IMG/VR virus record: IMGVR_UViG_3300008262_000024
Span: 1-64,000 of that record
Length of the DNA: 64,000 nt
Strand: one strand, 5' to 3'
Source of the DNA: a virus
The notes under the pieces are model-generated. The model worked only from the letters and a program-made list of their open reading frames with translations, was not told the origin of the DNA and searched no databases. Below, one piece after another: positions 22,971-42,075 of the stretch (its first letter is position 1; every line of letters starts with the position of its first letter). Made by a program: the position numbers and the translations under genes.

Positions 22971-25900
22971 TTATTTATCTCTTTCAATGTCTATCATTTT
23001 CTTAGCAGAGTAGACAAATGGTATTTGTTTAGAAGTATAATAAAAATATCCAGTTTTGTCATAAGGATCTTTTTCACCACTAATATCATGATAAGCTTGA
23101 TCTACAAAGTTTTGTAATGCTTTTTTAGCATCTAGTGCTACTGATGTTACTGGCATAGATGTTTGAAATAATATATCAACACCTTCTGAACCATAGAAGA
23201 AACCAAGTTCTCGTTTAACTCTATTAATAGTTCTGTAAGTCCAATTTAATAACAAGTATTGTTTATAATCTTTTTTACCATCATCATCCCAATCTCCTCC
23301 AGCTAACATTCCTAAAGTAATTAATACTAATAAAACTTGTAATTCAGTTACCATAGATTTAATTTGACCATTATAATAATCTAAGAATTCTTCAAAAGTA
23401 TATTCTTGAATTCTTTTATCATACATATTATCAGATTTAAACTTTTCAAACAAAGCTCTTGCTCTAGATTCATTAGCTTTAAAAGTTCTAACTTTACCCA
23501 TTGTAAATAAACTTAATGGTACATCTAGTGCAAGTTTACCTAATCCAATCCAAGCTGATTTATTTAAAAGTAAAAACTTTTTAGATTCATCATCTTTTAA
23601 ACTATCATATACTGCATAAAATCTACCAACAGTTACAGCATTAGTATAGTTATTGTATCTAATACCATTAAAATGTTCTTTAAATAAATCAGGTAACCAG
23701 TTTTTGTAAGTCATTGATAACTTACCTAAAATTTGAAAATTAATAGCTCTTTGGTCTTGATCTGAAAGTTCACCTTTAATTGTTCTAGAAACACCTCTAA
23801 CTGAATTTGTTAATTCATTATAGATATCTAATGTCATACCTTCAATTTCAAGTTTACCATCTTTAATAGATGCTTTTTCAAATAATGATTTAGAACCTTC
23901 AGGTAATGTTGCTAATCTTCTCAACCTACCATTAGCATCAATACCATAGTTTTGCATCATAGATAAACCTAAACTATTATCAATCCATTCAGAACCCATT
24001 CTAAAACCAATGAATGGTAATCCCATATTAGCTAATTTAATTAGTCTATTATCAGGTAATTCATTTGCTTGTAAGCTTACATGCTTACCATCAAACTGAA
24101 AGTATTGAAGTATAGCAGTAACAAGTTTACCTTCACCTTCTTTATCAGTAAAAGTTTTAGTAAGAAGTTTTTCACTTCTTTTCATCTGTTTTACAGTATA
24201 ATAAAAACCTTTTTTACCTTCATAATAAGACATTATTTTAGAAGATAATGATGCTGCTCCTTGAGCAATAGGTTCAAGACCTAGTTTAGTTAATCTTTGG
24301 AAATTATTAAATTTATTTAACCTATTGGTCCAATCTTTACCAATATGCTCACCTTGTTCTTTAATACCATAAATATGGTATAAAACAGTTTTTCTAAACA
24401 ACTGAGCTTCATCTAATTGTTGACCTGTTACTTTAGTAAATAATTTAGCACCCTTTTGTTTACTCACACCAGATGTAGCAATCATATCACTTAACACTTC
24501 TATTTCAGCTTCTATCTGTTTATAACCTTCATAATTAAAAACTACATCAGCAAATGTTAAAAGTGTTCTTGAAAGGTCATATGATTTTAATGAATTGTCT
24601 ATAACACCTTCTTTAGAATATAAAGGATGTATACCAAAGATTGGTATATCATTTTCTATTTCTCCAGTTTCAACATTTTTTCTTCTAGCAAGTTCAGTAT
24701 AATATCCAAATTCATCTCTATCTGCCTGTCTTGTCCACATTGACAAAAGATTTTGCCATGCTGTTTTACCAGCAGTACCATTATAAATAGATTCTATTAG
24801 ACTAGCTCTAAAGTATGGAATAAAGTTATCAGGAACTACTGAGTAATCATTTTCCATACCTAAAGATTTTCTAAAACTTTTCATGGACTCTGTCCAAAAA
24901 TCATAATATTCTTTTAAAGCAGGTGTATTTTGTATTTCTAAATACTCTTTAGAATATATTTCTGATGATAATGAGTTTTTATATTCAGGTTTTAATTCAT
25001 AATACCAAGCATAATTTTTAGGATCAAACTTATATTTTTCTAAAGAATTATTATCTAAAAAGGTTTTTATTTTCTTTTCATCTTTTTCAACAGTCCAACC
25101 ATTATCACCAATTATTTTTAACAACCATTTATTATGTCTGTCCTCAGAGTCTTCCTTTAATCTAAAATATTTATCAAGAGTTTTAGCATCACCTTTCTCT
25201 CTAGCTTCTTTCATTCTAGCATTAAACTCAGGATTAAACTTTGCAAAAAGATTTCCTGTTTCTTTATTAATGATTTTATCATAAGCTCTTAATATACCTA
25301 CACCAGAGTTTTGAGCATGCTTTTCAAGTTTTACAGTAACCTCTTTAAGCTTTTCTTTAAAATTAAATAATTTTATTTTAGCTTCAGATTCTACTTTACT
25401 TTTCTTCTTAAATGCTTCTCTAAATATAGGATGTTGTATTTCACCAAATGTGTTAAATAGCTGACTTACACCATCAATACCTTTAGCATTTTGAATTTCT
25501 TCAATATTTGTAGAAGTTAAATCAAGTCTTTTAATTAATTCATTTTTTAATTGATCTGTAAGTATATCAATATTATTTTGAAGTCTTTCTATTTGATGTC
25601 TGTATTTAGCATAATCTGATTCTTCAATACCCATTCTATCATAGAATTCATATGAACCTGCAATGATAGAAGATATAATACTTAATTCTTTAATTAATTC
25701 CTGATGTTGTTTTAAATTAAGATAGTTTTCATTATTCTTATCTTTAATTTTTTCTTCAGTTATATTTACAAGTTGTGCATATCTCTTATTATCAAATGTA
25801 GAATACTTATTAATTACTTTAGTATAATCATCAACAAGAGTTTTGATATCTCTTTCTACAATAACAGCATTAATGGCTCTTGTAAGTTTATCAATTCTAG

Positions 25901-26948
25901 ATTTTAGATATTCTTTTCTTTCTCTAGATATTTTTTCACCAAGTTCTATTGTAGCATTGTTTTTAAGTATATAAAGTTTTTCTAATTTTTCATCTAATGA
26001 CTTTATACCAGTTTTTTCTTGAACAGGTATCTGAGTTAAATAATCTTTAGCTGAGGCAAAAGTTTCTATTTGTTTTACTTTACCATTAGTTTTACCATCT
26101 TTAATTTCAAGAACTAATTGAATAGGTACAATTCTAGATTTTTCAACTGCATTTATACCAATAACATTTAATAATGAAAATGTAGTTTTAGGTAATTGAG
26201 TATTCCAATCTTCATATTTATAAAATGGAATCCAGTTAGGATCTACAACATATTGTTTACCATCTTTATATTCAACACTAGAGTTTTTAGCTGTCATAGA
26301 TTTATAGTCATAATGATCTGCTGTAAGATCTGAATATAAAAATATTAAGTCAGCTGTACCTGCTAATTTACTAGATGCTAATAATCTTTGTTCAGGTGCA
26401 ATATATACTTTACCAGTAGGATCTTTTTTAGTTTGAACACTAATAGCATCATCTATTAATGCTTTAGCTGTTTTATATAATGTATTAAATATAGTTTCAT
26501 TTAACTGAGTTTCAGCTCTTAGCTCACTTACTGTTTTATAAGTACCCTGTTTAATTAAAACTTTATCTTTATATGTAGTGCTTGCAATTGCTTGGACTAA
26601 ACTCTCAAGAGTATTGTGTAAGTATGTACCAACTTCTCTTTGAGCAATAGACATTGGGTCTTTATTTATCTCCTCAGCTTTTAACTTACCTTTCTTTCTT
26701 TCAAATTTTTCTTTAGCTTCACTAGTAAAAGTTTCTGAAATAAAAAACTGTTCACTTGAAACACCTATAATACCATAACCTCTTTTACCCTTATATTCTC
26801 TAGATTCAAAAATTCTTTGTAATAGTTCAAGTCTATTAATAGCTTCTTGTTGAGTTTCAGCTTTACCTAAAAACAGATTAGCTATCATATTATTTCTTAT
26901 AGCATCACTTGCTTCAGAAAGTGATATATTTGTTTCACATTTTTTCAT
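22971..26948 (-). CDS. Large virion cargo/ejection protein with N-terminal PD-(D/E)XK nuclease-like domain
   Basis: 1325 aa; last of the giant-gene trio; GTYLH..E, EQRL, AGTADLI, DYKS, QL; hydrophobic helix near the C-terminus. Confidence 0.75.
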   Translation of the reverse strand: MKKCETNISLSEASDAIRNNMIANLFLGKAETQQEAINRLELLQRIFESREYKGKRGYGIIGVSSEQFFISETFTSEAKEKFERKKGKLKAEEINKDPMSIAQREVGTYLHNTLESLVQAIASTTYKDKVLIKQGTYKTVSELRAETQLNETIFNTLYKTAKALIDDAISVQTKKDPTGKVYIAPEQRLLASSKLAGTADLIFLYSDLTADHYDYKSMTAKNSSVEYKDGKQYVVDPNWIPFYKYEDWNTQLPKTTFSLLNVIGINAVEKSRIVPIQLVLEIKDGKTNGKVKQIETFASAKDYLTQIPVQEKTGIKSLDEKLEKLYILKNNATIELGEKISRERKEYLKSRIDKLTRAINAVIVERDIKTLVDDYTKVINKYSTFDNKRYAQLVNITEEKIKDKNNENYLNLKQHQELIKELSIISSIIAGSYEFYDRMGIEESDYAKYRHQIERLQNNIDILTDQLKNELIKRLDLTSTNIEEIQNAKGIDGVSQLFNTFGEIQHPIFREAFKKKSKVESEAKIKLFNFKEKLKEVTVKLEKHAQNSGVGILRAYDKIINKETGNLFAKFNPEFNARMKEAREKGDAKTLDKYFRLKEDSEDRHNKWLLKIIGDNGWTVEKDEKKIKTFLDNNSLEKYKFDPKNYAWYYELKPEYKNSLSSEIYSKEYLEIQNTPALKEYYDFWTESMKSFRKSLGMENDYSVVPDNFIPYFRASLIESIYNGTAGKTAWQNLLSMWTRQADRDEFGYYTELARRKNVETGEIENDIPIFGIHPLYSKEGVIDNSLKSYDLSRTLLTFADVVFNYEGYKQIEAEIEVLSDMIATSGVSKQKGAKLFTKVTGQQLDEAQLFRKTVLYHIYGIKEQGEHIGKDWTNRLNKFNNFQRLTKLGLEPIAQGAASLSSKIMSYYEGKKGFYYTVKQMKRSEKLLTKTFTDKEGEGKLVTAILQYFQFDGKHVSLQANELPDNRLIKLANMGLPFIGFRMGSEWIDNSLGLSMMQNYGIDANGRLRRLATLPEGSKSLFEKASIKDGKLEIEGMTLDIYNELTNSVRGVSRTIKGELSDQDQRAINFQILGKLSMTYKNWLPDLFKEHFNGIRYNNYTNAVTVGRFYAVYDSLKDDESKKFLLLNKSAWIGLGKLALDVPLSLFTMGKVRTFKANESRARALFEKFKSDNMYDKRIQEYTFEEFLDYYNGQIKSMVTELQVLLVLITLGMLAGGDWDDDGKKDYKQYLLLNWTYRTINRVKRELGFFYGSEGVDILFQTSMPVTSVALDAKKALQNFVDQAYHDISGEKDPYDKTGYFYYTSKQIPFVYSAKKMIDIERDK

Positions 26949-29900
26949 TATCCAATTTTACATATTTTATCAATTTCTTCTTGACTCATAGCTCTCAACA
27001 TTTGAATTTTTTCATCTATTGAAATGTCTGCAAATTGAGGAAAGAAGCTATCAAAGTTGTCAATGTTTATCTTATCAGTTCCATCTTGCACTTCAGGTTT
27101 TGCACCAGGTTTAGTTGCATATGGGTTTATTTTTTTTAGACCTTCTGTAGGTACAAAGATATCACTTTCTTCTTCAGTTTTAACTAATTGATTAGATAAA
27201 CCATCTATTAAAACATTTTTATATACTTCAAGTTGTTTTTCAGTAAGCTTACTTGCTCTATTACCTGCAACATTTAAAACTTTTATATTATTTTCAATTG
27301 TCCAATTTTTTAATTCAATAGCTGTAGGATTTACAATAAATGGTTTACCACTTTCAGATAATAATTTTAAAGTTAATTTACTACCTGTAGAAGTAATATC
27401 ACCAAATAAAACTGTACCATTTGAATTCTGAACATTTAATTTTGTTCTTACAGAATAATCAGAAGATATACTTTCTTCTAAACCATATTCTTCTTTTAAA
27501 GAAGGTTGAAGTCCTTTTTCAGTTTTATAACCTTTAGGAGCTATTCCACCTGTTTCTAACTTTAAAGCCTTACCTACCATAAGACCAAGTTGATCTATAC
27601 CTGTTTGTCCACCTGCTATTATTTTTTTAACTGGTGAAACTAATAATCCAGTATCTTCATTTACACTAGCTTTTTCAACATAGGCACTTGCAAGTTCAAC
27701 AAAATTATCTGTAATAGGAACTTGTTTTCTATAATCTACACCTTGATAATTACCTATTGGAGTAACTATTTGAGATGTTAGACTTCCATCAATTACTAAG
27801 TGTACTTTATTATTATTATCTATAGCATATGGAAAGAAGCTTGTTATATTAGAATAATTATATTTAGGATTAAACTTCCAATCTTCAGGTAGATATTCAG
27901 TATTAGCTAATAAAAACTTATGAGCAAACTCATTTATAATCTCAGATCTAAAGTCACTATCTGTTAATATAGCATCTATAACATCATTAATATCAGAAAC
28001 TATTTTACTTTGTGATGTGTAAGGTAAAAATTTATTTAATTGAAATACTGAATTATAAGTACCTGATTGGAATATATTTCCTATTTCTATTAAGTTTTGA
28101 ATTTCTAAAGGTAGTTCTTCAAAAGAATCAGCTTGTTCATTTATAAATGATGTAGTTCCTTTACCTTTAAAAGATCTAAAGTTATCTAATTTTGCAGAAC
28201 CATTTTCTAATAATACAAATATGTTTTGTAGAAACAAGTTGTCTTTAAACTTAGGATTATCTTTTAAATCAAATAAACCTTTAGCTAAAGAGTTTTTACC
28301 TTTCATTATTTCATCAAAACTATAGTTTTCAATTACTGAATAAAAGTTTTGAATAAAATATGTAATTAAGTGCTGATCTAACTTATTATAAAATTTTTCT
28401 TTATCTGTTGTTGTTAGATATAAAAGTTTAGGTAATGTAGTTTTAAATGCCTGATACACTTTTAGTTTATCTACAAAGTAAAATCTTTCATATAGATCAT
28501 TATATAACTCTCTTCCTTTAAAGAAAGGTTCTATAATTGAATCATTACTAATTAATTTTCTTTGTTCATCTAATGTTATAATTGGAAAAGGTACATCATT
28601 TATTTCTTGATATAAATCATTAAGTGCAATAACACCATTTCTATCTTTAAGATATTTAGTATCAGGTGAATAGTATCTTTTTACTTTATTAACTTCTTTA
28701 GCTTGTTCTCTTAAATTTAAGAACAATGCTAATACATCTTTTGATATAGATTTATCTTTAGACTTAATTTGATCTATTGTAATAATAGATGGTTCATAAT
28801 CTAAAACTCCAAATTGATTTTTTAAATCAGCATTACTTTTAACAAAACCTCCTTTTTTAAAGCTTCCAGTAGATTTAATAATCATAGATTGATTAATCCT
28901 TTCTTCTTTTAAGAATTCTGAAATATAAGGATGCTTCATAATATGAATAATATTCTCAATAGATATACCTCTTAATACCATGTAAGATATTGTATCAAGA
29001 GTTTGATTGACAATATTTAATATTTCAGCATAAGGATCTTTAACTAAGTCTACTTGTGATGTAAGTAGTGCAGATAGTACTATTGATACAGATTCACCTA
29101 CTTCATCAAGATTATTACCTAAATCTAAATTAGAAGTAAATCCTTCAATATTAATTTGAACTGCAGGATATTCAGGATTAAGTTTAACACCATATCTCTG
29201 AGCTAAGTCTGCAAGATTAATCCAAGTAGCTAATTGACCTACACCAGCTTTACCAGATACAAATCTAATAGATGCTTTAACATTAAATGCTTCAGTAAAC
29301 AATCTAGTCATTGGTATACCTTCTTTAGGTACATAGGTTGATTTACTTGATGCTAAAGGTGTATCTGCTACTGGTGAGTAAAGATTTTTAGCTTGAGAAG
29401 GATGTAATAACATTTGGATTTCAATATCCAAGAAATGATTTTCTAAAGCCTTTTGACTATTAATTTCTTCAACAGGTGTAGCTTCAAACTCTTCTCTAAA
29501 AGCTTCTTTAATGTTTTTCTTTCTAGTTCTAATTGCTTTAATTGCAGATTTTCTTTTAGCTTCTAGATCTTTTTCTTCTTGAGTAGGAGCATAAAAATCA
29601 TTTATTTGTCTTTGAATTAATTTATTTTGTCCTATTAAAGACTTTTGTTGTGCAACAAGATTATCAAAGTTTTCAAGAAATACTCCTTCTTCAACAGCTT
29701 GTTTTCTAGTTTTTCTACCAGATGCATCAAGTGTTTTTTGAATTTCATCAATTGTATTTTGATTATTTTGTTGCTGTTCTCTTAAATTAGATTTAGCTTC
29801 TTTAGATGTAGTAGCTTCTTTACCAGTAGTTTCATTGGCATATTTTATAAACTCATTAATAGCTTCTTGACCTAATGCATTTAATGCTGCTTCAAGATTA

Positions 29901-32900
29901 TCTAATCTAGATGCAAAACTTTTATAGTTAGGATCTGTCTTAATGTCACCTTGCTTTTTAAATACACCTTTGTCTTCAAGAAACTTATCAAACAATTCAT
30001 CAGTATGAGTTTCATAATATTTAATTCTATTACCATCTTTATCTAAATGATAATAGTATAATGATATTTTATCAATATCAAAGTCACCACCTGTCTTAGC
30101 TACAAGCTCTGATGGAACTACAGCCATACCTTGCATCATTGGTAACAAGAACTTTTTAATCTTAAATACATCATTAGATGAAAACTGTTGATTAGGAATA
30201 CGAAGACCTTTAGCTATAACCTCAAGGTCACCTTTAGCAATATCAGAATTTAACTTTTGTACAGCTTCAAGAATATTTCTAGTGTTGTATTTAGTAAATG
30301 CTGCTTTTAATATTTCTGGTGTTACAGGAATAATAATTTCAGCAGGTGATATACTACCATCTTTATTTATTTCATAAAACTTAAGAACATCTGAATCAGA
30401 TTTTAAAGTACCATCTTCATCATATTGTCTAGGTCCTGACTCAAACCCTGTAACAGCAGCTTGAGGAACCATGTCACCTAATCTCTTTTGAACAAGTACT
30501 CTATTAGTTACTAATGCATTAAGAATAGGTTCTATCTTATTACTATTAGGAATAAGCTCTACATATTTAACATCTTCTAAAAACTTTTCAGCAGCTTCAA
30601 TAACATTATCTGCAGAGTTTCTATCTTTAGCAGCTTCAACTAAAACATCTCTTAATTTTTTAACAGATATTTTAATTTCATCAGGATAAACTTGAGCATC
30701 AAGTTCTTCTAAAAGATTATCTATAGATCTATTAATAATTGTATTTTGAACTTTTTCATATTTTCTAACTAGTGAATATACAGGAGAAGCTGATTCTTTT
30801 TGTTCTTCACTTAAAGAATCCCATTCTTCTTTAGTACCTGGAAAATCTGAAGGAACACCTTTATCAAAAAATCCTTCAAGTATATTTTTTCTAGCCTGAG
30901 TAGAACTTGTAATTTTATTTTTAGGAATGTTATTAATCTTAACCTGATTCTTCATATACTTCCAAGGTAATCTACCAATTTGATCTTCTGTAATTTCTTG
31001 AAGATCCCAATTACCTTCTGTATATAATGGTCTCATTTGTTTAATACCAAACTTAGCAGCACCCTCCATATGTAATACATCAATAGAGTTAGCTATCATA
31101 AATTCATGTACTGCATTTAAAGCTACATCATATATAGCTGTAGGCATTAATGGAAGATAAGCTGTCTTTCTACCAGCTATAACATTTAAACCAACCTCAT
31201 CAGTTGTTGTAAAGTCATTAGGACCTACATACTGTGGTTTTTTAATAGTTAATGGTGCATAGGTTTTAAATAACCATTCACCAATATCTTTAACATCATC
31301 TGGAATATTTAAATCATCTTTAATAGAATCTAAATCATATCCACTGTTTATAAACTTAACTTGTAAATCAAAGTTTCTTTGTTTAGCATCATTCCACTCA
31401 TCAGTTCTAAGTTCAAACTCTCTAGCCATGAACATGTTAATATATGAGAAACCATCATTTTCTGTATATTCTTGATAAGCTTTAGCATATGATGTTGCAT
31501 ATTGTTCAGCTTTTTGTTCATCACCTTTAAAGTCTTTTAGAAGTTTATCTTTAATAGCTTGTTTAATATTATCATAGTAATATGATTTTACAGCTGGATC
31601 TGAAATAACTAACTCTCTTATAATGTTTACATCATAATCTTTTTTATAAGTATAAGTAGTATCTCCTATTTTAACTGGAGATTCAGAATTTAATTTTCTA
31701 ACTTGATAATCAATTTCCTTTCCTATAAGACTTAATTTACCAGTAGATGATTGTGTGTTCAATCTTTTAGGTAAATCTTTAGATTCTTTATAAGCTGTAA
31801 CATCACCTACAAATAATATAGATTGCTCATACTTCTGTAAGAAACTTTCTAATGCTGCATATGATACTGCTAATTCCCAATCATTATTAAACAAAGATTT
31901 AGATATTATTTCTTCAGATATACCAATAGCTGTTTGTTCATAAATTGTTTCAGCATACTCACCAAATCCTTCTACCTTTTTATAAGTTTTATTTAAACCA
32001 TACTCTTTAAACATTTTAATGTCTTCAGAGATTACACTTTGTTTTAAATAATTTGTTATTTTATCTGCAATATACTTGTCAGTAGGTTGAAGTGTTCCTT
32101 TAACTAGGTCTTTAAAATCATTGTAAGGAATAATTTCTGAAAAGAATGATTTTACTTTATAGGTTTTTTCATCCTTCAAAGTTCTATCCATATATGAATA
32201 GTCACCTTTTGGTTTATTTAATTCATCTATCAAATAACCTGTAATAACATCCTTAGCTTGACTTACAACATTGTTAATGTTAGTTTCTGGTGTTAATATA
32301 CTACTGTTTGTACCTATTTTATAAACAGGAAATAAACTTCTATCTGAATGTTTTTGAGATGGTGATAGACCACTTAATGTCATATTAAGATTTAAAGAAA
32401 ATAAGTCACCTTCTTTTAAATCTGAAACATGTGTTGCTTTATCTAAGGTAACATCTTTTAAACCTTCAACAATAGCATACTCTACTTTTTCACCATTATA
32501 AATTTTTTGTATCCATCTAGAATTTTCACTTTGATTATTTTTAAATATATGTGGAAGAGCTTCTTTTAAATATTCTATTCTATAATCTCTTTTTTCTATT
32601 GGATCAATAGAATCATCATTATTAACTAAATCTATATAATAGTTAATAGTATCAGCAATTATGGTTTGATAAGTATTAAGGTTAATAAGATATACTGGTT
32701 TACCATCAATGTTCATAAACTGAAGTTCAGTATTTTCAGATTTTGATTCAGCAATAACATTTATTATTTTATTTAGTCTTACTGAATATTCACCATCATA
32801 TATTTTAGAAACCTTATCTACTTTTACTAGATTTAAAATCTTACTAACTTCATCTTTAATAATATTTAAACCTTCTTCACTAACATCAGATAATGATCCA

Positions 32901-35722
32901 AGTCCTAAGACTTCAAACTTTTCTTCTAAACTTACATTAGGATCTTTTAACATTGCTAAAAAGTTAGCATCTTTATCACCTTTAAGTTTAAATCCTGTAA
33001 ACTCTGAATAGTTCTTTTTAAATTTAACTTTAGCTTCATTTAACAATGTGCTAATATAATTTTCTTTATTAGCAGGAATAAAAACCATGTTTCCATTCTT
33101 TAATAATCCTGTATAGAAATTATATTTAGTTAATGCAAACTCTGATACAAAAGATCTTCTTAAATCTAAGATTGTCTTTACATCATCAGTAATAGGTTGA
33201 TTGTTATCAATTATATCATCAACATTAATATCATTTAAATAATCTAATAAATCATTAAACTGAGGATATTTTTCAGATAACTCTTTAATCTTATCAATAA
33301 ATATATTAATATCTGCAGGTAATGTAGCTAATGAATTCTTAAGAATGTTAACATTATTGTTCCAACTACCTGCTTGAACAATGTTAAGTACATTTGATCT
33401 CTTTAGACTATAGTCTTTATTTCTATCAGGTAATGCACTAATTAAAAGCTTAATAGCTTTAGGCATGCTGTCTTTAGTATTAAACTCAATAGCTGGAATA
33501 ATATCAAGATTAGATCTACCTATCTTATCACCTTCTTCTTTTAAATCCTCTGCAGTTCTATCTTCAGTAAGATTATCAGTTTCAGTTGATAGTTTATCTG
33601 GTTTAGTAATAATGTCTGAAGTCTTTTCTTCTAAAGTTTTTATATTAAAAGAACTTAATCTACTTAAATGTTCTTTAATTAAACTAACAAATGCATTATC
33701 AGGATCTTCATTAAATGCTTCTAAAATTTCATTAGATTCAATTTTATTAGATATTTCAAGATCATCTAATACTTGATTAATTACAACATCATATACATTT
33801 TTAATTTGATCAGAAGTATAATTGCTTTCAGCAATATCAAATATTCCATTTACAAACTCTCCATTAAATTCTTTAGTAAAATTCTTTATAACACTTGGAG
33901 TAAATAATATTTTAGCAAAATAATAATCCATTGCAAATAACAACTCATGTTTTTCAGTAGCTGTTAATTCTCTACTGTTAATAGATATTGCTCTATTTTT
34001 TTCAACAGATGTATTCTCAACAAGCTTTTTAGCTTTAGAGTATCTACCCTCATCAATAAGTTTATAAAGTTCTTTAATGTCTTTAGGTGAAGCTTTTAAA
34101 AGTTTATCAAAGAAATTAATTATATCCTGATATATCTTTTCAAATATGTTAGATGGCTTAGGTTTAGCTAAATTGTAATCTCTAAAATCTTCTGCAAAGT
34201 ATTCTTCTATTAAATCATCTTCTGTAAGATCTGGATAACTCTTTGTAAGATATTGTATTTTAGATTTATAATCAGGATCTGATTTAAATTGATCTAACAA
34301 TCTAGATCTTTCTTCAGGAGTTAAATAAAAATTCCATACTCTATGAAATGCTTCATGATACTCAGTACCTTCTTCAAATGATTCTGACAAAAGTATTTTA
34401 CCATCTTTAAGTATTTTACCAAAAGCATTACCATCAACTAAACCTTGTACTCTAACAATTTCATTAGCTGACATACCAAGTTTTTCTCTTAAGTATTTTT
34501 CAGCTTTTGTAAAATCACCTTTTTTATATTCTAAAGGTTTTGATAATTTATTTTTTATATTTGTTTGAAGAGTTAATAATGCATTTTTCCAGTCATTATA
34601 TGTATTCATAGACTGAAAATTAATTTCTCTTTTATCTACAAAGTCTTTTACTTTTTCTTGAGCTGCTTTAGATATAAAAGGTTCATTTAATACTATAAAT
34701 CCTTCTAAATCTTCTCCTATAACTTTTTGTTCTTCTCCATACTTATTTATAAAATAAGATTCACCATCTTCTTTTTTATAATAATAATTTTCATCAGAAA
34801 TACCTTCTAATTTTAAATATGCTTTAAAAGCTTTATAATGATTTCTATGTTTATTATATAGTTGTTCAAAATTAGATGTATCTATATTTAAGTTTTTTGC
34901 AATTGCTATTAAAGCTAAAGAATTGTTTTTTAAATCATACCACTTTGGAATTGTATTTAAAAAAACTTCTTCATTATTTTTATAATGAACAACTTCATCA
35001 GGATAATTAACATTTAAACTTTCAAGAGATTTTGTAACATCTTTTCTATATTCTGGTTTACTTAAACTTGCTTTTCTAGATTTACCTTGTGCAAACTTCT
35101 TAAATCCTTCTATATCTTGTTTAGAACCTAATATGTGAATTTGTTTTTTAGATTTTACTACATATTCATCTCCACCTTGAGCAATAACTATTGCTGAATC
35201 ATTTGTTAAAAAAGTAGGATTAGCTTTATAAGCTAATTCTTTAGAATCAAAATCTGCTGAAAAATTTAAAATTACAGCATATTGTTGGTCACCATAATCT
35301 CTTGCTCTATCTCTATTTTTAAAAAAATAATTCCAAAGTCTAATGTTTACTTCATTGTCTCTACCTACTGATCCATCATCTTCACTATCTCTAAAAAAAT
35401 CATCCTTGTTTTCAATAAATGGAAGCCCGTGATAAAATATATCTTTTTCTTTACTATTAGGAAATATAGTGTCAAGATATTGAGAGTATAGTTCTAATGT
35501 ACCTATAGTAGCTAATTCAGGATTAGATTCAAATATTTCTGCCACTCCTAATTTAACAGATACTCTTTCTTCAACACCTAATTCTTTTAATGTAGGAAAT
35601 CTATCAGTATTATTTTGCTGTTGCCATAAAGCAATCTTTGCAGCAAGTACATCTGAATTTACAGTAGCTTTTGATTCTAAGTCTTTAAACTCTTTAGATG
35701 AAGTAACTATACAGTATGTCAT
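26948..35722 (-). CDS. Virion-packaged DNA-dependent RNA polymerase (crAss-like), multidomain
   Basis: 2924 aa; LRIPNQ and KTGGDFDIDK catalytic loop (about 30071-30085); KRL..QSS; accessory HEAFH zincin, ART-like and SLOG-like domains. Confidence 0.9.
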   Translation of the reverse strand: MTYCIVTSSKEFKDLESKATVNSDVLAAKIALWQQQNNTDRFPTLKELGVEERVSVKLGVAEIFESNPELATIGTLELYSQYLDTIFPNSKEKDIFYHGLPFIENKDDFFRDSEDDGSVGRDNEVNIRLWNYFFKNRDRARDYGDQQYAVILNFSADFDSKELAYKANPTFLTNDSAIVIAQGGDEYVVKSKKQIHILGSKQDIEGFKKFAQGKSRKASLSKPEYRKDVTKSLESLNVNYPDEVVHYKNNEEVFLNTIPKWYDLKNNSLALIAIAKNLNIDTSNFEQLYNKHRNHYKAFKAYLKLEGISDENYYYKKEDGESYFINKYGEEQKVIGEDLEGFIVLNEPFISKAAQEKVKDFVDKREINFQSMNTYNDWKNALLTLQTNIKNKLSKPLEYKKGDFTKAEKYLREKLGMSANEIVRVQGLVDGNAFGKILKDGKILLSESFEEGTEYHEAFHRVWNFYLTPEERSRLLDQFKSDPDYKSKIQYLTKSYPDLTEDDLIEEYFAEDFRDYNLAKPKPSNIFEKIYQDIINFFDKLLKASPKDIKELYKLIDEGRYSKAKKLVENTSVEKNRAISINSRELTATEKHELLFAMDYYFAKILFTPSVIKNFTKEFNGEFVNGIFDIAESNYTSDQIKNVYDVVINQVLDDLEISNKIESNEILEAFNEDPDNAFVSLIKEHLSRLSSFNIKTLEEKTSDIITKPDKLSTETDNLTEDRTAEDLKEEGDKIGRSNLDIIPAIEFNTKDSMPKAIKLLISALPDRNKDYSLKRSNVLNIVQAGSWNNNVNILKNSLATLPADINIFIDKIKELSEKYPQFNDLLDYLNDINVDDIIDNNQPITDDVKTILDLRRSFVSEFALTKYNFYTGLLKNGNMVFIPANKENYISTLLNEAKVKFKKNYSEFTGFKLKGDKDANFLAMLKDPNVSLEEKFEVLGLGSLSDVSEEGLNIIKDEVSKILNLVKVDKVSKIYDGEYSVRLNKIINVIAESKSENTELQFMNIDGKPVYLINLNTYQTIIADTINYYIDLVNNDDSIDPIEKRDYRIEYLKEALPHIFKNNQSENSRWIQKIYNGEKVEYAIVEGLKDVTLDKATHVSDLKEGDLFSLNLNMTLSGLSPSQKHSDRSLFPVYKIGTNSSILTPETNINNVVSQAKDVITGYLIDELNKPKGDYSYMDRTLKDEKTYKVKSFFSEIIPYNDFKDLVKGTLQPTDKYIADKITNYLKQSVISEDIKMFKEYGLNKTYKKVEGFGEYAETIYEQTAIGISEEIISKSLFNNDWELAVSYAALESFLQKYEQSILFVGDVTAYKESKDLPKRLNTQSSTGKLSLIGKEIDYQVRKLNSESPVKIGDTTYTYKKDYDVNIIRELVISDPAVKSYYYDNIKQAIKDKLLKDFKGDEQKAEQYATSYAKAYQEYTENDGFSYINMFMAREFELRTDEWNDAKQRNFDLQVKFINSGYDLDSIKDDLNIPDDVKDIGEWLFKTYAPLTIKKPQYVGPNDFTTTDEVGLNVIAGRKTAYLPLMPTAIYDVALNAVHEFMIANSIDVLHMEGAAKFGIKQMRPLYTEGNWDLQEITEDQIGRLPWKYMKNQVKINNIPKNKITSSTQARKNILEGFFDKGVPSDFPGTKEEWDSLSEEQKESASPVYSLVRKYEKVQNTIINRSIDNLLEELDAQVYPDEIKISVKKLRDVLVEAAKDRNSADNVIEAAEKFLEDVKYVELIPNSNKIEPILNALVTNRVLVQKRLGDMVPQAAVTGFESGPRQYDEDGTLKSDSDVLKFYEINKDGSISPAEIIIPVTPEILKAAFTKYNTRNILEAVQKLNSDIAKGDLEVIAKGLRIPNQQFSSNDVFKIKKFLLPMMQGMAVVPSELVAKTGGDFDIDKISLYYYHLDKDGNRIKYYETHTDELFDKFLEDKGVFKKQGDIKTDPNYKSFASRLDNLEAALNALGQEAINEFIKYANETTGKEATTSKEAKSNLREQQQNNQNTIDEIQKTLDASGRKTRKQAVEEGVFLENFDNLVAQQKSLIGQNKLIQRQINDFYAPTQEEKDLEAKRKSAIKAIRTRKKNIKEAFREEFEATPVEEINSQKALENHFLDIEIQMLLHPSQAKNLYSPVADTPLASSKSTYVPKEGIPMTRLFTEAFNVKASIRFVSGKAGVGQLATWINLADLAQRYGVKLNPEYPAVQINIEGFTSNLDLGNNLDEVGESVSIVLSALLTSQVDLVKDPYAEILNIVNQTLDTISYMVLRGISIENIIHIMKHPYISEFLKEERINQSMIIKSTGSFKKGGFVKSNADLKNQFGVLDYEPSIITIDQIKSKDKSISKDVLALFLNLREQAKEVNKVKRYYSPDTKYLKDRNGVIALNDLYQEINDVPFPIITLDEQRKLISNDSIIEPFFKGRELYNDLYERFYFVDKLKVYQAFKTTLPKLLYLTTTDKEKFYNKLDQHLITYFIQNFYSVIENYSFDEIMKGKNSLAKGLFDLKDNPKFKDNLFLQNIFVLLENGSAKLDNFRSFKGKGTTSFINEQADSFEELPLEIQNLIEIGNIFQSGTYNSVFQLNKFLPYTSQSKIVSDINDVIDAILTDSDFRSEIINEFAHKFLLANTEYLPEDWKFNPKYNYSNITSFFPYAIDNNNKVHLVIDGSLTSQIVTPIGNYQGVDYRKQVPITDNFVELASAYVEKASVNEDTGLLVSPVKKIIAGGQTGIDQLGLMVGKALKLETGGIAPKGYKTEKGLQPSLKEEYGLEESISSDYSVRTKLNVQNSNGTVLFGDITSTGSKLTLKLLSESGKPFIVNPTAIELKNWTIENNIKVLNVAGNRASKLTEKQLEVYKNVLIDGLSNQLVKTEEESDIFVPTEGLKKINPYATKPGAKPEVQDGTDKINIDNFDSFFPQFADISIDEKIQMLRAMSQEEIDKICKIG

Positions 35723-38700
35723 TTTGTTTTACAGTTTTTAGCTTGTTGTTGCATCATTGCTTTTTCTGCTTTTGTACTTGGAGCAGACAAACCACTAACA
35801 CCTCTTCTTCTAAACTTTTGTAACTTAGTTTCTCCTTCTTTAGTTTCAGTAGGTTTACCTTCTAAAGCAGCTAGTTCTGCGTTAATAAATTTAGAAAGAA
35901 GATATTTTGAAACAATATTAGCAACTTCTGTTTCAGACTTTGCTTTACTCAACTTGTCTTTTAAATCTTTCTCAAGTTCTGTTTGATTTAATGTATTTTG
36001 CCAAGATTCATATTTAGCTTCATCTAAAACATTGAATATATCATCCATTTTAGATGTCAGATCATCAGTGGATGCTACTAGGTTTTTAATTTCATTAAGC
36101 TGTTTTTTTCTATCAGAAACAGTAGCTGTAGAATCACTTTCTATTTCATCAGCTACTTCCTCTTCTTTAGAAACAGGAGTTTCTTCTGAAAGAGAAGCTT
36201 TAAGTTTAGCTTTAAGTTTTTCTTTTTGTGCTTTTAATTTAGCTTTAATTTTATCTTCATCAGATAAATTAAGTTCTGAGGTATCTGTTTCAGTTTTAGT
36301 TTCTTTCTTTTTAGAAACAACAACTTTCTTATTTTCAGGTTTATCTGAAGGCTTTGTAAAGTTTTCATTAAGTTGAACTTTAATAGTATTACCTTCTGAT
36401 ACTCTTTTAAACACAATCATCTTGTTTGCAAATTTAGGAAAATTATCTTTACTAGGTAATGATGTTCTTAATACACTATCAACTAAGAAACTTCTGTAAC
36501 TTGGATAAGATTTGTAACTCATTTCATATTTACCATCAGCAGTTCTTTTAACTTGAGGATGGAAATATAAGTTTGGAGTATTTTCACCTAACAACTGTTT
36601 ATTAACATTTAATCTTTTATCTGCAAGATAAGTTACTAAATCTCCAATTAAAGGATTTTGAAGTGGATCTGTTGAAGCAAGTGCTTTCTTTAGAGTTAAT
36701 ATATCCAAACTAGTTTGAATCCATTTACCATCTTCTAACTTCTTTTTAAAATGAATTTCACCATTATGATAAAATATTTCACTTACCTTATCAGATGCAA
36801 TAGGAATTTCTTTTCCTTGTTGATCAATATAATTTTTATCTAACTGTCTTCCCCAATACAATAAACTAGTAATAGCTGATACATTACTTTCACTATTAAA
36901 TGGTAACATTAAATAAGAACCTATAGCCTGCATTTCATCAGATGAACTAGACTTTTTAATTCTCATAAACTTCTTATCTCCAAAATCAGGTGCTTTAACA
37001 TTACCTTCATCTGCAGTAGACATTATATATAGTGCAGTTAATATTTCATCAGGAGTAAGAGTTCTTTGAGTTAATGGTACAACTTCATTAGTTTTATCCA
37101 TCTTTAAAATAACTTTACCAGGAGTATATGAAGTTTGTGTTGTATAATCTACAACTTCAATATCACCACCTTCTAATATACCTTTCTCAGTTACTTTAAC
37201 AGGTAATGCTTTAGTTATCTTACGTTGAACAGGTTTGTTAAACATTGGTTTACCATTTTCATCAGTTTCATATTGTATGATAGGAACACCACCTGTCACT
37301 AAAGAAATACCTGAATAAGCTTTCTTGTTTTCAGTTTCAACATGATTAACTATTGTATTGATAACTTGTTCTTGATATAAACCTTTATCACCAGCTATAA
37401 TTTCTTTAGCTTTAGCAATAAGTTCATCTATAGTTATTTCACCATATAATTCATATACACCACTGTTTTCAATATTATTAGTCTTTTCACTATTAAGAAC
37501 AATATTACTTTGATACTTTATTTTAGAGTTCATTAATAGACTTACTATTTTTTTACCAGCTTTAGACATAGCATAGTTACTACCATCTTTTAAATAGTCA
37601 GCAACAATCTCAGCATCACTTTCACTTATTTCTAATGCTGATGTTCCAGCTATAAATGCATCATATCTAGTTTCAATAATAGCTTTACCATCTTTAATTG
37701 TAACAGTAACATCTACATCTTTACCATAATTTTTAGCAGCAAATGTATAAACACCATCTTTCTCTTTAACTTCATAATTATTAATAAACTTAACATCTTT
37801 TCTAATATTAAATCCATTAGTAATTAAACTAACAGCTGCAGCATTATTAATTCTAAGAGCACCAGATTTACTTGTAATTGATTTAGGAATAAAACCTACA
37901 ACTAGTTTAGTTTGGTTAGCATATGTTTCAGTTGCAGGATTACCTTTTTCATCTTCTAAATAAAATCCTATTGACAAATCACCTGGTTTTCTACCTTCTT
38001 CACCTTCTGGTATTGCTTTATATAAGTTTAATAACTCTGAACTAGTTTGACCACCACCAAGAGACACAGTAACATTTCCATCTTGATCTGTTCTACCTAT
38101 AAAGAATCTAACATTATATTTCTTAGCTAAGTCAGGATTATTTTTTATAAATGTACTTAACCTTCTATAGTTTTCATCATTCTCATTTAGTTCAGGCAGA
38201 CCTTCATTATTATCAGGATATGATGTCTTTTTAGTTTTATCATCATATGCTAAATCTAATGCAATAGATCTAAATATATAATTTGATAGAAACCCACTAA
38301 AGTCAGGTTTACCTCCTACTTCTTCTTCTTCATAAACTGTTGGAGCTTGTCCAGTAGGTGCTTGATTATTATAGTTAATAGGTTGACCAGGAGTTCTATT
38401 TAATTTATTTTTATATTGAATGAATAAATCATTCATTAAAGTTTTTAAATCATTTTCTTTTTGAGTAATTTCTAGAAGTCTTATTTCTCTAGGACCCATC
38501 TGTGCTATTTGCTGTTCAGATAAATCAAAGTAATATTTAGTTGCAGATTCTAATAACCTTTGTCTATGACTAACAATTTTATCAATCATTCTATCTGGAT
38601 AGAAATAATGATTATCTACATAAAATTGTGTTTCAACACTTAAAGGTATTTGATTTGCGTTCTTAGCTGCAGATTTAATATCACTTGTTAATTGTGATAA

Positions 38701-41700
38701 ACCTTCAACACCAAATCCTAAATACTGATCTGTTAATAAGTTATTTGTTATTTGTATAATTTTAATATACTCTTCATCAGTAATAACATTATTTCTAAGT
38801 TTTTCAATAGAACTAAATATTAACTTAAGAGGTTTGTATCTAGCAGCTATTAATTTTAGTTTGTTAGGTGAACCATCTTTATTAGTATCAGATACAAAAT
38901 CTGCTGTTAATAATGCTTGAATAATTTCATTAATATCTTTAACTCTATTAAGGTCTTCAAGTATTATTTGAAGTTCTGTTCTTAGGTCAAGAGCATTATT
39001 TAATTCTTGTTCAGCTTTAGCTACAGCTTGTTCTGCTTTTTGAAGATTTTCATTTAACTGTCTTTCTTCTTCTATTAAAGATTCTAGCTCTTTATTTATT
39101 TCATTTAAAATTGATCTTGTAAATTCATCAAACAAAATGTTATCTTGTTCAGTTTTAAACTTACCATCTTGTTTATTAATTTCAAAATCTTCTTTTATTC
39201 TATATAATAAATCTAACTGTTGAGTTAAACTATCATATATACTATTTAAATCTGTTATTTGATTATCAATTTCTTCAAGTAATCCTTCTAATCTTTTAAT
39301 TTCAGCTTGAAGTTGCTTCTTTTCTTGTGCTTTACCATTATTAGCTCTACCAAATTCATTAGTGATTTCTTTAATCCAGTTTTGATAAATTTCTATTTCA
39401 TTTTTAATCTGAACTCTTTTATTTACAGCATCTTGTAGCATACCTTTATTTTCAGATAAACTTGTCCACAGTTTATCATATACTACTTCAAATGCTCTAA
39501 GCTTAGCAACTTTACTTCTTCTTATTCTTTCAAGTTTTCTTTTTAAAAAAGCTTCCTGCTTGTTTATAATTCTAACACCTTTATTCTTTTTTAAAAAGTC
39601 AATAGTAAATTCTCCTTTAACTTCTTTAGTGAAAGAATCTCTATATAATCTTTTTAATTTACCAGTTGTAACATCTCTTTCAGAATATGCTTCATACTCT
39701 TTACCATTAAGTTCAAAGTAAAAAAATCTATCATCACCTTTAAACTTTTGAAGTTCTTCAGGAGAAAGTTTAGCTTTAACTTCAGGATCTAGAGTATGTT
39801 CTATATCCATCTTATAACCAGCATCAGCTAAATCTTTAGCAAATTTATCTGTTACTTGTTTATCAGTAATTTCAGATTCTTGTTTTGAAATTTCTTTATT
39901 TGTTTTATCAGCTAAGTATTTATTATATTCTTCTTGAATAGCTTCTTTACTATATAAAGCTTTCTCATCTTCTAAAAGATCTTTAAGTTGTTCTTTATAT
40001 TGTTTTTCTTTACCATAAAGAAGTTCTAGTTCTTTTTTATCTGATTCAGATAATTCAACAGGAGTTGTAGGATCTTCTTTATCTACAAGATTTTTAGATA
40101 CAATATTAAATATTTGTTGATTTAAACTATTAGTAACTTTTTTAAGTTCTGAATTTAAAACTACTTTTTCTAACTTTTTATTTCTAATTAACTGACTAAA
40201 TGCAGCTCTATCACTTTTACTACCACCTTGTAAAGTTGGCATATCAAACTCATGTCTATTATCAACACTGTCATAAAGTTCATAATACTCATCAACTCTT
40301 TGTAATAAATTTGACATTCTTTGAGCTTGTGTTGTAGAACCTGTTAAACCAAGTAACTCTTCAACATCTTGTTTTTCTAATTCACTTTTAGAAAGCTCAC
40401 TTGTAATATGATTTTTTAAAATTTGAATACCTTCTTGACCTTGCTCAAAGAAAGGTTGAAAGTAATTGTAATCTAATATTGATTGAATTAAACTATAATC
40501 TTCTTTATCTCCTGATAATGCTGCTATATCAGCAAGCTTATTTAACATTATTTTATTTTCAGGTTGACTTAACAACTGCTGAAACTTTTCTTGATTTATT
40601 TTAGGAGTACCTTTTTCAATTATAATTTTACCATTATCATCTTTTTCAAATATATCAGCAACACCTTTCATTCTGTCAATTAAATTGTTTTTTAATTGAG
40701 CATGTAGTATACTGCCATATTTACTTTGATACCTATCATCTTTAATTTGACCTACTATTGACATACCTCCACCAAGAATACCACCTAATGCAATAGCTTT
40801 TCGCATATCAGTAGTACCTAAATTTTCAACATATGAGTCTATAAGCCCACCTAATTTTTGATAATAGGTTTTATCTTGTTCATCTTCAGATAACATTGCT
40901 TGATCTTTAAAATACTCAGCACCTGAAAATTGTAAACCTTCTTCAAAAAAACCTTCTTTACCTAAACCAACAGCAGCTTTACCTAAATAACCTAAATATT
41001 TTTGTTTTAATGTTTTAGCACTAAAGTCTTGAAGAACTCCTTGTTCATTAAACATTTTACTAAGTGCTGATTTTCTAGAACCAAATGCACCAAATAATGC
41101 TCTTTGGTCCATTAAGTTAGGAACAAGTAATATTGCCATATTGAATTTAAAGACATCAGCTGCTACTCCACCTGCTTGTTCTCTTAAACCCATCATAGTG
41201 TTTTCATCTATTTGAGAAGCATCTTCTATATTATTAGCTTCCATGTAATTAGAAACTACAGCATCTAAAGTATTATCAAAAGATTCTTTAGCTTCAGCAG
41301 AAGCTTCTAATGTAGCATTAACTGTAGCTGCTGTAAAATCATTAAAGTTTCTAGCAGCTCTCATTCCTAACTTTTCAGCTTGAGCTGCATATCTTAATGC
41401 TCCAGTTTTAGTAAGACCTTTAGATAAACCTTTAACTGTTCTTAAATAAGCATTACCTGCATTATAAAGATTAACACCTCTTTGTCCTAATTTTAAAAGT
41501 TTAAGTGCATTACCTGGTACTAACATTGATGCTAAAAATCCTATACCATCAGCACCTTCTGTAGCCCAAAATGAAGCTGAAAATAAGTTATCCAATAAAC
41601 CACCTTTTTTAACTGATTCAGGAATATATACTTTTAATAATTCTTCATTAGCATAATCTTCCCATTCTTGTACACTATTAACCCAAACATTATCTAATGA

Positions 41701-42075
41701 CTCTCCTAATGATTCATTAGTAAATGCAGCCATAGTTAGACCACCAACATATCCTGGCATTTTTGCAATCTCACTTACAAATTTATTTACAGTTCTTAAA
41801 GCACCTGCTCCAAGTTTTTCAGGAACACTTTGAAAATATTCTTGTTCAAATTCAACTTGTTCAGGTGTTCTAAAAAATACAGCTTCTTTATTATCAATAT
41901 CAAAAGTAAAATCTTCTGAAAACCAAGATTTACCTGAATCAACTATGTTTTGATAATCTTCAATAGAAACACCAGGAGCATTTCTTATTGGAATATAATT
42001 TTGTTGTTGTTCTTCTAAAACTGGTGCTTTAGGTGTATAAGATTGTATTAACGACTTTATATCTTCTGTTGGCAT
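35719..42075 (-). CDS. Large virion cargo/ejection protein
   Basis: 2118 aa; Gly/Ala-rich hydrophobic helices in the N-terminal third, EE..Q motif, long coiled coils; first of the giant-gene trio. Confidence 0.75.
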   Translation of the reverse strand: MPTEDIKSLIQSYTPKAPVLEEQQQNYIPIRNAPGVSIEDYQNIVDSGKSWFSEDFTFDIDNKEAVFFRTPEQVEFEQEYFQSVPEKLGAGALRTVNKFVSEIAKMPGYVGGLTMAAFTNESLGESLDNVWVNSVQEWEDYANEELLKVYIPESVKKGGLLDNLFSASFWATEGADGIGFLASMLVPGNALKLLKLGQRGVNLYNAGNAYLRTVKGLSKGLTKTGALRYAAQAEKLGMRAARNFNDFTAATVNATLEASAEAKESFDNTLDAVVSNYMEANNIEDASQIDENTMMGLREQAGGVAADVFKFNMAILLVPNLMDQRALFGAFGSRKSALSKMFNEQGVLQDFSAKTLKQKYLGYLGKAAVGLGKEGFFEEGLQFSGAEYFKDQAMLSEDEQDKTYYQKLGGLIDSYVENLGTTDMRKAIALGGILGGGMSIVGQIKDDRYQSKYGSILHAQLKNNLIDRMKGVADIFEKDDNGKIIIEKGTPKINQEKFQQLLSQPENKIMLNKLADIAALSGDKEDYSLIQSILDYNYFQPFFEQGQEGIQILKNHITSELSKSELEKQDVEELLGLTGSTTQAQRMSNLLQRVDEYYELYDSVDNRHEFDMPTLQGGSKSDRAAFSQLIRNKKLEKVVLNSELKKVTNSLNQQIFNIVSKNLVDKEDPTTPVELSESDKKELELLYGKEKQYKEQLKDLLEDEKALYSKEAIQEEYNKYLADKTNKEISKQESEITDKQVTDKFAKDLADAGYKMDIEHTLDPEVKAKLSPEELQKFKGDDRFFYFELNGKEYEAYSERDVTTGKLKRLYRDSFTKEVKGEFTIDFLKKNKGVRIINKQEAFLKRKLERIRRSKVAKLRAFEVVYDKLWTSLSENKGMLQDAVNKRVQIKNEIEIYQNWIKEITNEFGRANNGKAQEKKQLQAEIKRLEGLLEEIDNQITDLNSIYDSLTQQLDLLYRIKEDFEINKQDGKFKTEQDNILFDEFTRSILNEINKELESLIEEERQLNENLQKAEQAVAKAEQELNNALDLRTELQIILEDLNRVKDINEIIQALLTADFVSDTNKDGSPNKLKLIAARYKPLKLIFSSIEKLRNNVITDEEYIKIIQITNNLLTDQYLGFGVEGLSQLTSDIKSAAKNANQIPLSVETQFYVDNHYFYPDRMIDKIVSHRQRLLESATKYYFDLSEQQIAQMGPREIRLLEITQKENDLKTLMNDLFIQYKNKLNRTPGQPINYNNQAPTGQAPTVYEEEEVGGKPDFSGFLSNYIFRSIALDLAYDDKTKKTSYPDNNEGLPELNENDENYRRLSTFIKNNPDLAKKYNVRFFIGRTDQDGNVTVSLGGGQTSSELLNLYKAIPEGEEGRKPGDLSIGFYLEDEKGNPATETYANQTKLVVGFIPKSITSKSGALRINNAAAVSLITNGFNIRKDVKFINNYEVKEKDGVYTFAAKNYGKDVDVTVTIKDGKAIIETRYDAFIAGTSALEISESDAEIVADYLKDGSNYAMSKAGKKIVSLLMNSKIKYQSNIVLNSEKTNNIENSGVYELYGEITIDELIAKAKEIIAGDKGLYQEQVINTIVNHVETENKKAYSGISLVTGGVPIIQYETDENGKPMFNKPVQRKITKALPVKVTEKGILEGGDIEVVDYTTQTSYTPGKVILKMDKTNEVVPLTQRTLTPDEILTALYIMSTADEGNVKAPDFGDKKFMRIKKSSSSDEMQAIGSYLMLPFNSESNVSAITSLLYWGRQLDKNYIDQQGKEIPIASDKVSEIFYHNGEIHFKKKLEDGKWIQTSLDILTLKKALASTDPLQNPLIGDLVTYLADKRLNVNKQLLGENTPNLYFHPQVKRTADGKYEMSYKSYPSYRSFLVDSVLRTSLPSKDNFPKFANKMIVFKRVSEGNTIKVQLNENFTKPSDKPENKKVVVSKKKETKTETDTSELNLSDEDKIKAKLKAQKEKLKAKLKASLSEETPVSKEEEVADEIESDSTATVSDRKKQLNEIKNLVASTDDLTSKMDDIFNVLDEAKYESWQNTLNQTELEKDLKDKLSKAKSETEVANIVSKYLLSKFINAELAALEGKPTETKEGETKLQKFRRRGVSGLSAPSTKAEKAMMQQQAKNCKTK

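Follow-up and report, generated by a model that had tools for sequence, protein, structure and literature searches.

Why does a phage whose largest proteins are almost devoid of cysteine retain four such residues, and only at protein ends that face one another across gene boundaries? This question is raised by a stretch of 64,000 nucleotides (i.e., the window; positions 1 to 64,000 of IMG/VR record IMGVR_UViG_3300008262_000024, a 92.8-kb viral contig), in which a minus-strand block at 22971-53236 consists of five very large protein genes in the list of open reading frames (ORFs). Three consecutive genes of this block, referred to here as A, B, and C in gene order, encode a Crassvirales cargo module built around a virion RNA polymerase (RNAP). 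We consider it probable that the four retained cysteines form two partner pairs, most likely disulfides, that join A, B, and C head to tail in one chain. An initial annotation of this DNA had suggested such a linkage. Its core, that the facing terminal cysteines are partners joining the three proteins, is supported by comparison with related phages, i.e., by the co-occurrence of the two cysteines at gene junctions, by the behavior of fused and split genes, by the free outer ends of the chain, and by an analogue in cyanophage A4.

Cysteines of the five giant proteins

The three proteins and their cysteine codons are as follows (aa, amino acids).

35719..42075, minus strand: protein A, 2118 aa; sole Cys at 2115, N-terminus Cys-free; counterpart of the N-terminal part of phiCrAss001 gp47 and predicted first link of the chain
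26948..35722, minus strand: protein B, 2924 aa; Cys at 4 and 2921 only; gp50-like two-barrel virion RNAP with a zincin region toward its N-terminus and an SLOG domain toward its C-terminus
22971..26948, minus strand: protein C, 1325 aa; sole Cys at 4, C-terminus Cys-free; gp49-like and predicted last link of the chain
35731..35733, minus strand: Cys2115 codon of A (TGT), fourth from the C-terminus
35719..35722, minus strand: ATGA overlap of the A stop codon and the B start codon, as read from the sequence
35711..35713, minus strand: Cys4 codon of B (TGT); a Cys at position 3 to 5 is kept in split homologs
26960..26962, minus strand: Cys2921 codon of B (TGT), fourth from the C-terminus
26937..26939, minus strand: Cys4 codon of C (TGT)

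All coordinates and counts of the initial annotation were reproduced by a script (A, 2115; B, 4 and 2921; C, 4), and A, B, and C contain no additional, internal Cys. The remaining two giants of the block (694 and 3014 aa) are Cys-free, as had also been noted. The five giants (10,075 aa) thus contain 4 Cys residues, while ~153 would be expected (Poisson P, ~6e-60) from the mean content of 1.52% in the remaining 27 ORFs of the window that reach 150 aa. Their Cys frequency (i.e., 0.04%) is far below the proteome level, as in Cys-suppressed ejection proteins of the Schitoviridae type. The codons TGY occur 4 times in frame in these five genes versus 110 and 538 times in the two other frames; therefore, the depletion acts on the protein and not on base composition. 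Each of the four residues is the fourth counted from the nearest terminus, and all belong to the two junctions at which the chain proteins face each other (i.e., A/B and B/C); the probability of finding one Cys in each of four facing 4-residue ends by chance is ~4e-12, which is a post hoc figure. The annotated starts of the chain genes are the first start codons after the upstream stop codons, and homologs begin with a conserved M-x-(x)-C, supporting these start calls.

Identity of the cargo proteins

A megablast search against a phage collection and a single-protein pattern scan of IMG/VR revealed no close relative of the record, and a PHROGs search with A, B, and C returned nothing. Protein B matched the virion RNAP subunits of crAss-like phages at ~23% identity (tblastn), and protein C is homologous to phiCrAss001 gp49 (BLASTP E, 1e-11). 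An alignment of gp49-like proteins (17 to 36% identity) has 7 invariant columns, and Cys4 is among them. The following elements were located in B.

34343..34357, minus strand: HEAFH zincin motif (residues 456-460); the homologous domain is the C-terminal end of gp47 in phiCrAss001
30071..30085, minus strand: DFDID catalytic motif of RNAP (residues 1880-1884), comprising invariant columns in the alignment of B homologs
27239..27622, minus strand: cpYpsA SLOG domain (residues 2701-2828; PF12694; E, 9e-25)

The zincin-like HExxH region of gp47 (residues 2098-2293) aligned with residues 403-564 of B (hhalign probability, 98.5%; E, 2e-15). Because the RNAP motif, the gp47-like zincin, and the gp49-like protein C are all present, the block is a Crassvirales cargo module of the gp47/gp50/gp49 type. 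The presence of A, B, and C in the virion and their ejection would follow by homology, since the corresponding cargo proteins were detected by mass spectrometry in the virions of phiCrAss001 and phi14:2 (PMC10172136; bioRxiv 10.1101/2020.03.07.982082).

Two upstream genes complete the block.

42090..44174, minus strand: 694-aa protein, Cys-free, upstream of the chain; gp46-like by position and, lacking a terminal Cys, not a link
44192..53236, minus strand: 3014-aa protein, Cys-free, presumed cargo

Cys-free ORFs equivalent to the 694-aa protein were found upstream of the chain in related loci. For the 3014-aa protein, no informative family match was found, and the PHROG search gave one 43-residue match only; this protein is far larger than phiCrAss001 gp45, its positional equivalent.

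Some further features concern the ends of the module. Homologs of B exchange the SLOG domain for other C-terminal modules (i.e., YbiA/DUF1768, PF08719, or a ParB-like domain, PF02195), or have such modules encoded as separate two-Cys links, and these exchangeable modules look like injected effector domains. In gp49-like proteins, the region corresponding to residues ~186-216 of C contains invariant D200 and D214 and near-invariant K216 (consensus, IYDxKT). A PDB search with a gp49-like profile found no solved relative, and its match to a PD-(D/E)XK endonuclease-like structure (9iab) was weak (E, 0.5). On these grounds, protein C may carry a nuclease-like domain.

Conservation across Crassvirales

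A search of 5.8 billion proteins yielded 69 homologs of B (22 to 100% identity). Nearly all of them carry a Cys among their final six residues and are otherwise almost without Cys, except that the homologs of 2,100 to 3,100 aa carry an additional Cys at position 3 to 5, which the forms of 4,000 to 5,100 aa lack. We also collected 80 diverse IMG/VR loci with an alignment-based scan and defined a junction as the boundary between consecutive Cys-poor ORFs. Among the 169 non-redundant junctions, both facing cysteines were present at 85, neither at 80, and only one at 4. Thus, 85 of the 89 junctions with any facing Cys had both, i.e., one at the C-terminus of the upstream protein and one at the N-terminus of the downstream protein; in two of the four one-sided cases, the upstream Cys was present at -18 or -30 (negative numbers count from the C-terminus). 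The position ranges from 2 to 6 for the N-terminal Cys and from -1 to -8 for its C-terminal counterpart. Across 171 non-redundant chain proteins (435,121 aa), we counted 190 terminal and 70 internal Cys residues; the internal ones amount to 0.016% of residues, versus 1.6% in adjoining genes. For ordinary proteins, the share with a Cys within eight residues of either end is ~15%. Cys is invariably missing from the N-terminus that opens the chain and from the C-terminus that closes it.

The reference phages conform to this pattern. In phiCrAss001, gp47 (plus strand) has its sole Cys at -3, gp50 (minus strand) has Cys at 5 and -9 and one internal Cys, and gp49 (minus strand) has its sole Cys at 5. 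In phi14:2 (GenBank gp078 to gp076), the facing residues are at -1 and 3 at the first junction and at -2 and 3 at the second, a perfect fit. Conservation of the terminal cysteines, which the initial annotation had put forward as a check, therefore extends across the order, i.e., through the 69 homologs, the 80 loci, and the reference phages.

Two features of the window could be taken to indicate that the cysteines are by-products of the gene junctions, with TGT forming part of a translational-coupling signal or another DNA or RNA signal: both junctions overlap (ATGA at A/B and TAATG at B/C), and TGTAAAA stands upstream of the start codon at each. Chance or mis-called starts would be further trivial causes. 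These explanations are refuted by the comparative data. The pattern is obeyed in phiCrAss001 despite the location of gp47 and gp50 on opposite strands; the spacers between partner genes range from -10 to +892 nucleotides, and the long ones hold whole genes; the terminal Cys codons are TGT in 147 and TGC in 23 of 170 cases, with variable Cys position; and the GenBank-annotated starts of four reference phages show the same arrangement. The post hoc probability given above speaks against chance. The terminal-Cys pattern in the window is neither chance nor a DNA-level junction effect.

Stop-recoded phages (TAG read as Q or TGA as W) also follow the terminal-Cys rule. The cargo genes of loci L073 and L074 are open only with TAG as a sense codon (15 to 65 in-frame occurrences per gene), and those of L039 only with TGA as a sense codon (5 to 17 per gene); judged from these frames, the three loci represent stop-codon recoding in late genes of crAss-like phages. 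As a separate matter, one internal Cys recurs ~950 to 1180 residues before the C-terminus of the RNAP in many lineages (e.g., L026, L030, L038, and L050). It lies at -1079 in phiCrAss001 gp50 (L081, 17485-24723) and is missing from the RNAP of the window. This residue may be a functional polymerase residue.

Fused and split modules

As a check, the initial annotation had proposed to ask whether gene fusions or splits lose or gain the cysteine pair. The outcome agreed with a linkage: fused joints lack the pair, and split points have it. The number of polypeptides that make up the module ranges from one to five among lineages, with a pair at each break, and A-B, B-C, and A-B-C fusions have no Cys pair at the fused joint. 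Among the long homologs of B, P0012 was shown to be A fused to B. In p-crAssphage, B is fused to C, and the B/C pair is absent while the A/B pair is kept. Locus L004 (6281-21289, plus strand) contains a single 5002-aa ORF comprising A, B, and the gp49-like protein, which has no terminal Cys and two internal ones (2130 and 2533).

The chain breaks are not homologous, since the zincin domain forms the end of A (i.e., gp47) in phiCrAss001 and lies inside B in the window, and since the breaks lie at different distances from the DFDID motif. The A/B break is found at about -1270 to -1590 residues from this motif in phiCrAss001, phi14:2, p-crAssphage, and others, at -1877 in the window, and at -2100 to -2480 in further loci; extra breaks occur at -3575 and at +713 to +1990. 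At the site homologous to the break of the window, the phiCrAss001 protein has no Cys, and the same is true in the reverse direction. In a tree of the RNAP core (FastTree only; branch supports are local SH-like values), the architectures are interspersed: split L029 falls within a fused clade, fused L008 within a split clade, and L019, with a gp49-like gene divided into 421 and 1739 aa, is the sister of L040, with an undivided gene of 2150 aa. Thus, every interruption of the backbone has its Cys pair, no other site has one, and the two outer ends stay free.

Nature of the proposed link

The comparative data support the facing cysteines as partners. By analogy with the cyanophage A4 pair and with the disulfides in the phiCrAss001 tail, the bond is most likely a disulfide. 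The cargo proteins have been purged of Cys, as have other ejected podophage proteins, and in the proposed mechanism this loss would prevent wrong cross-links. Cys2115 of A would pair with Cys4 of B, and Cys2921 of B with Cys4 of C, the intermolecular disulfides forming once the particle has left the reducing cytoplasm. The product would be a nearly linear chain of ~6,400 residues. Its side stubs would not exceed ~5 residues, which is short enough at the junctions for a narrow channel. Because no phage-encoded redox enzyme was found, oxidation would have to occur spontaneously once the particle is released, with reduction left to the host. In evolutionary terms, the Cys pair would substitute for a peptide bond. 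We infer that a single thread exits the capsid, in N-to-C gene order, and is then taken apart into its proteins by host reduction in the cytoplasm. The initial annotation had further suggested that the chain is threaded through the tail and fixes stoichiometry, which may be the case.

Several points weigh against this account. The Fisher test of co-occurrence (P, 2e-43) ignores shared ancestry and is descriptive only. There are one-sided exceptions, i.e., L003, L009, and p-crAssphage gp47: the last protein (L086, 1588-4161; 857 aa) has its sole Cys at -2 and is followed by Cys-free gp46, and a 393-aa ORF of L009 has a C-terminal Cys without a partner. Internal Cys is tolerated in some lineages (e.g., 7 residues in p-crAssphage gp44, and L039), in which mis-pairing is possible. 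The links of the crAss-like chain are predicted from sequences, and the phiCrAss001 maps do not resolve the cargo (PMC10172136). Similarity of the A4 pair to the window proteins was undetectable (BLASTP E, 0.07 or worse). Finally, assembly takes place in a reducing cytoplasm and many hosts are gut anaerobes; no thioredoxin or glutaredoxin was found in the record, and an Erv-type oxidase had no match there in a search whose Erv control matched in no genome. As an observation on another genome, p-crAssphage has a thioredoxin gene (gp39) as well as a truncated copy (gp37).

The reducing conditions of cytoplasm and gut and the lack of a recognized oxidase gene also favor a variant in which the facing cysteines are true partners that make a contact other than a disulfide, i.e., share a metal ion, engage in other thiol chemistry, or form a conserved part of a non-covalent docking interface. 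The comparative data show pairing and are silent on its chemistry, which likewise leaves room for such a contact. However, with one Cys per side, a metal site would have just two ligands, and the surroundings contain no further conserved Cys or His. A flexible covalent tether fits better than a fixed metal site because the Cys position drifts by several residues. Moreover, the sole solved analogue (A4) is a disulfide, and crassvirus virions contain disulfides. We regard a non-disulfide contact as unlikely.

The unpartnered C-terminal cysteines of p-crAssphage gp47 and the L009 ORF could instead mean that a terminal Cys binds a third component (i.e., the portal, the capsid interior, a DNA end, or a membrane lipid) or homodimerises rather than joining its neighbor, and the lone Cys at position 2 of both T7 gp14 and T7 gp6.7 would fit this idea. 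It leaves unexplained, however, why the first N-terminus and the last C-terminus are Cys-free, why the two cysteines occur together in 85 of 89 junctions, and why they are lost jointly on fusion. We give this explanation little credence.

In N4, the C-terminal domain of the virion RNAP is required for encapsidation. The link could accordingly serve assembly and not ejection, in that one packaging signal would bring all three proteins into the procapsid at 1:1:1 while ejection order is set otherwise; fused polyproteins would gain the same benefit. Disulfide formation in the cytoplasm during assembly is unlikely, however, and stubs of at most ~5 residues look tuned to passage through a narrow channel. 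An assembly role is, moreover, compatible with the linked chain and not exclusive of it; as a replacement for ordered ejection, we find it very improbable.

Three other candidates were rejected. A lipobox or CaaX-type lipidation signal was dismissed, as there is no signal peptide and the C-terminal contexts range from C at -1 to CNKKGK. Split inteins or trans-splicing were dismissed, as no Pfam domain (Hint) was found at the facing ends and the Cys lies 1 to 8 residues from the terminus, a distance too short for half an intein. Cyclisation of the middle protein, with its own N- and C-termini joined, was dismissed, as the proteins at the two ends of the chain carry a single Cys apiece and what a fusion removes is precisely the facing pair.

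Beyond the linkage itself, we tentatively propose that Crassvirales possess a redox-reversible polyprotein held together by disulfides. In this proposal, which is possible but goes well beyond the pairing, Cys pairs would be the equivalents of peptide bonds, the ~0.7-MDa module would exit as one thread in gene order, and cytoplasmic reduction would separate, and possibly activate, the polymerase and its partners. The design would have arisen independently in cyanopodophage A4 or be shared with it from very ancient times.

Inserted genes and small links

The long spacers hold whole genes, i.e., those for a GIY-YIG/NUMOD3 homing endonuclease, DUF5856, and ferritin-like proteins, which have ordinary internal Cys and are skipped by the pattern. 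By contrast with these, three apparent spacer ORFs of 190 to 230 aa are themselves links, with exactly two Cys residues, at position 3 and at -1 or -2.

The homing endonuclease gene of L019 (18313-18993, plus strand) lies between the 421- and 1739-aa halves of the gp49-like gene, which is undivided in the sister contig L040. The N-terminal half is only 51% identical to that of L040 and the rest is 91% identical, a difference that suggests co-conversion or recombination at the insertion. In the clade nearest to the window, small genes of the DUF5856 or ferritin-like type are repeatedly placed between genes of the chain. Their products contain internal Cys and do not qualify as links. They were found at the following positions.

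L002, 18117-18467: small DUF5856/ferritin-like gene, internal Cys
L003, 20096-20596: small DUF5856/ferritin-like gene, internal Cys
L005, 18136-18576: small DUF5856/ferritin-like gene, internal Cys
L010, 16219-16632: small DUF5856/ferritin-like gene, internal Cys

Implications for cargo delivery

The pattern bears on how crassviruses, which outnumber all other phages in the human gut, transfer cargo proteins amounting to megadaltons, including the RNA polymerase that starts the infection. The crassvirus tail is narrower than the folded cargo proteins, and the delivery of this cargo and the order of its exit constitute an open question (PMC10172136). If the proposed tether is real, a covalent head-to-tail connection would provide a simple physical basis for order, stoichiometry, and co-delivery, and would account for the free fusion and splitting of the module in evolution. 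If A4 uses it as well, it would represent a general solution to ordered protein ejection. For annotation, terminal Cys pairs can flag which ORFs, among them small links without an assigned function, belong to the ejected chain, and can confirm their start codons.

Comparison with known systems

We found no description in the searchable literature of an order-wide, multi-link, fusion-equivalent cysteine pattern in Crassvirales. A link of this kind has been seen once, in an unrelated podophage; the present pattern is a far wider form of it and is combined with the known principle of Cys suppression. The single precedent is the pre-ejectosome of cyanophage A4, in which cryo-electron microscopy shows a disulfide between Cys1715 of gp27 and Cys5 of gp26 in the virion (PNAS 2025, PMC12002296). 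In the genome of A4 (Anabaena phage A-4L), the two proteins (1717 and 1114 aa) contain no Cys other than these (Cys1715 is at -3). As in A4, the proteins of the window are large and consecutive, with an upstream Cys near the C-terminus, a downstream Cys near the N-terminus, and otherwise Cys-free sequences. The A4 link is single, is viewed by its authors as a local stabilizer of a pentameric ring, and involves no RNA polymerase; it was not presented as a chain, a conserved rule, or an equivalent of gene fusion (PMC12002296). The A4 disulfide was observed in the particle; that of the crAss-like cargo is predicted from genes. A gp49-like profile matched no A4 chain in the PDB.

The closest counterparts are the modules of phiCrAss001 (gp47, gp50, and gp49) and phi14:2 (gp65 to gp67, corresponding to the GenBank entries given above), which are homologous and share the DFDxD RNAP, the zincin, the gp49-like protein, and the same Cys pattern. 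The window differs from them in the SLOG domain of B and from phiCrAss001 in the position of the A/B break, which lies ~400 residues upstream of the zincin in the window and just after it in phiCrAss001. Disulfides were reported in the tail and portal vertex of phiCrAss001 virions (Nature 2023, PMC10172136), in an atlas that leaves the cargo cysteines unmentioned and the ejection order open (PMC10172136). The study of phi14:2 noted fused polyproteins in some phages and did not note the cysteines (bioRxiv 10.1101/2020.03.07.982082).

Suppression of Cys was published for the ejection operon of Schitoviridae (i.e., N4 gp50 to gp52 and DEV gp71 to gp73; Nat Commun 2024, PMC11445570), where it was attributed, via an earlier suggestion cited there, to passage through the oxidizing periplasm. 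In these phages, as in the window, giant ejected proteins that include a virion RNAP are nearly Cys-free. Our check of the sequences found zero Cys in N4 gp50, gp51, and gp52 and in T7 gp15 and gp16. The Cys-free interior of the window proteins is therefore an instance of a known principle, since it has been published for Schitoviridae and holds in N4 and T7. However, N4 gp50 to gp52 and T7 gp15 and gp16 have no facing pairs, whereas the crAss-like and A4 designs keep exactly the link cysteines. Two further ejected proteins of T7, gp6.7 (L084, 865-1131) and gp14 (L084, 9729-10319), have one Cys each.

Viral polyproteins and the fused RNAP modules of crAss-like phages offer a last comparison, since a linked chain would likewise deliver the same set of domains as one covalent unit. 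Unlike in polyproteins, the continuity of the unit in the window would be established after translation by side-chain links, which reduction could undo, and not by the backbone.

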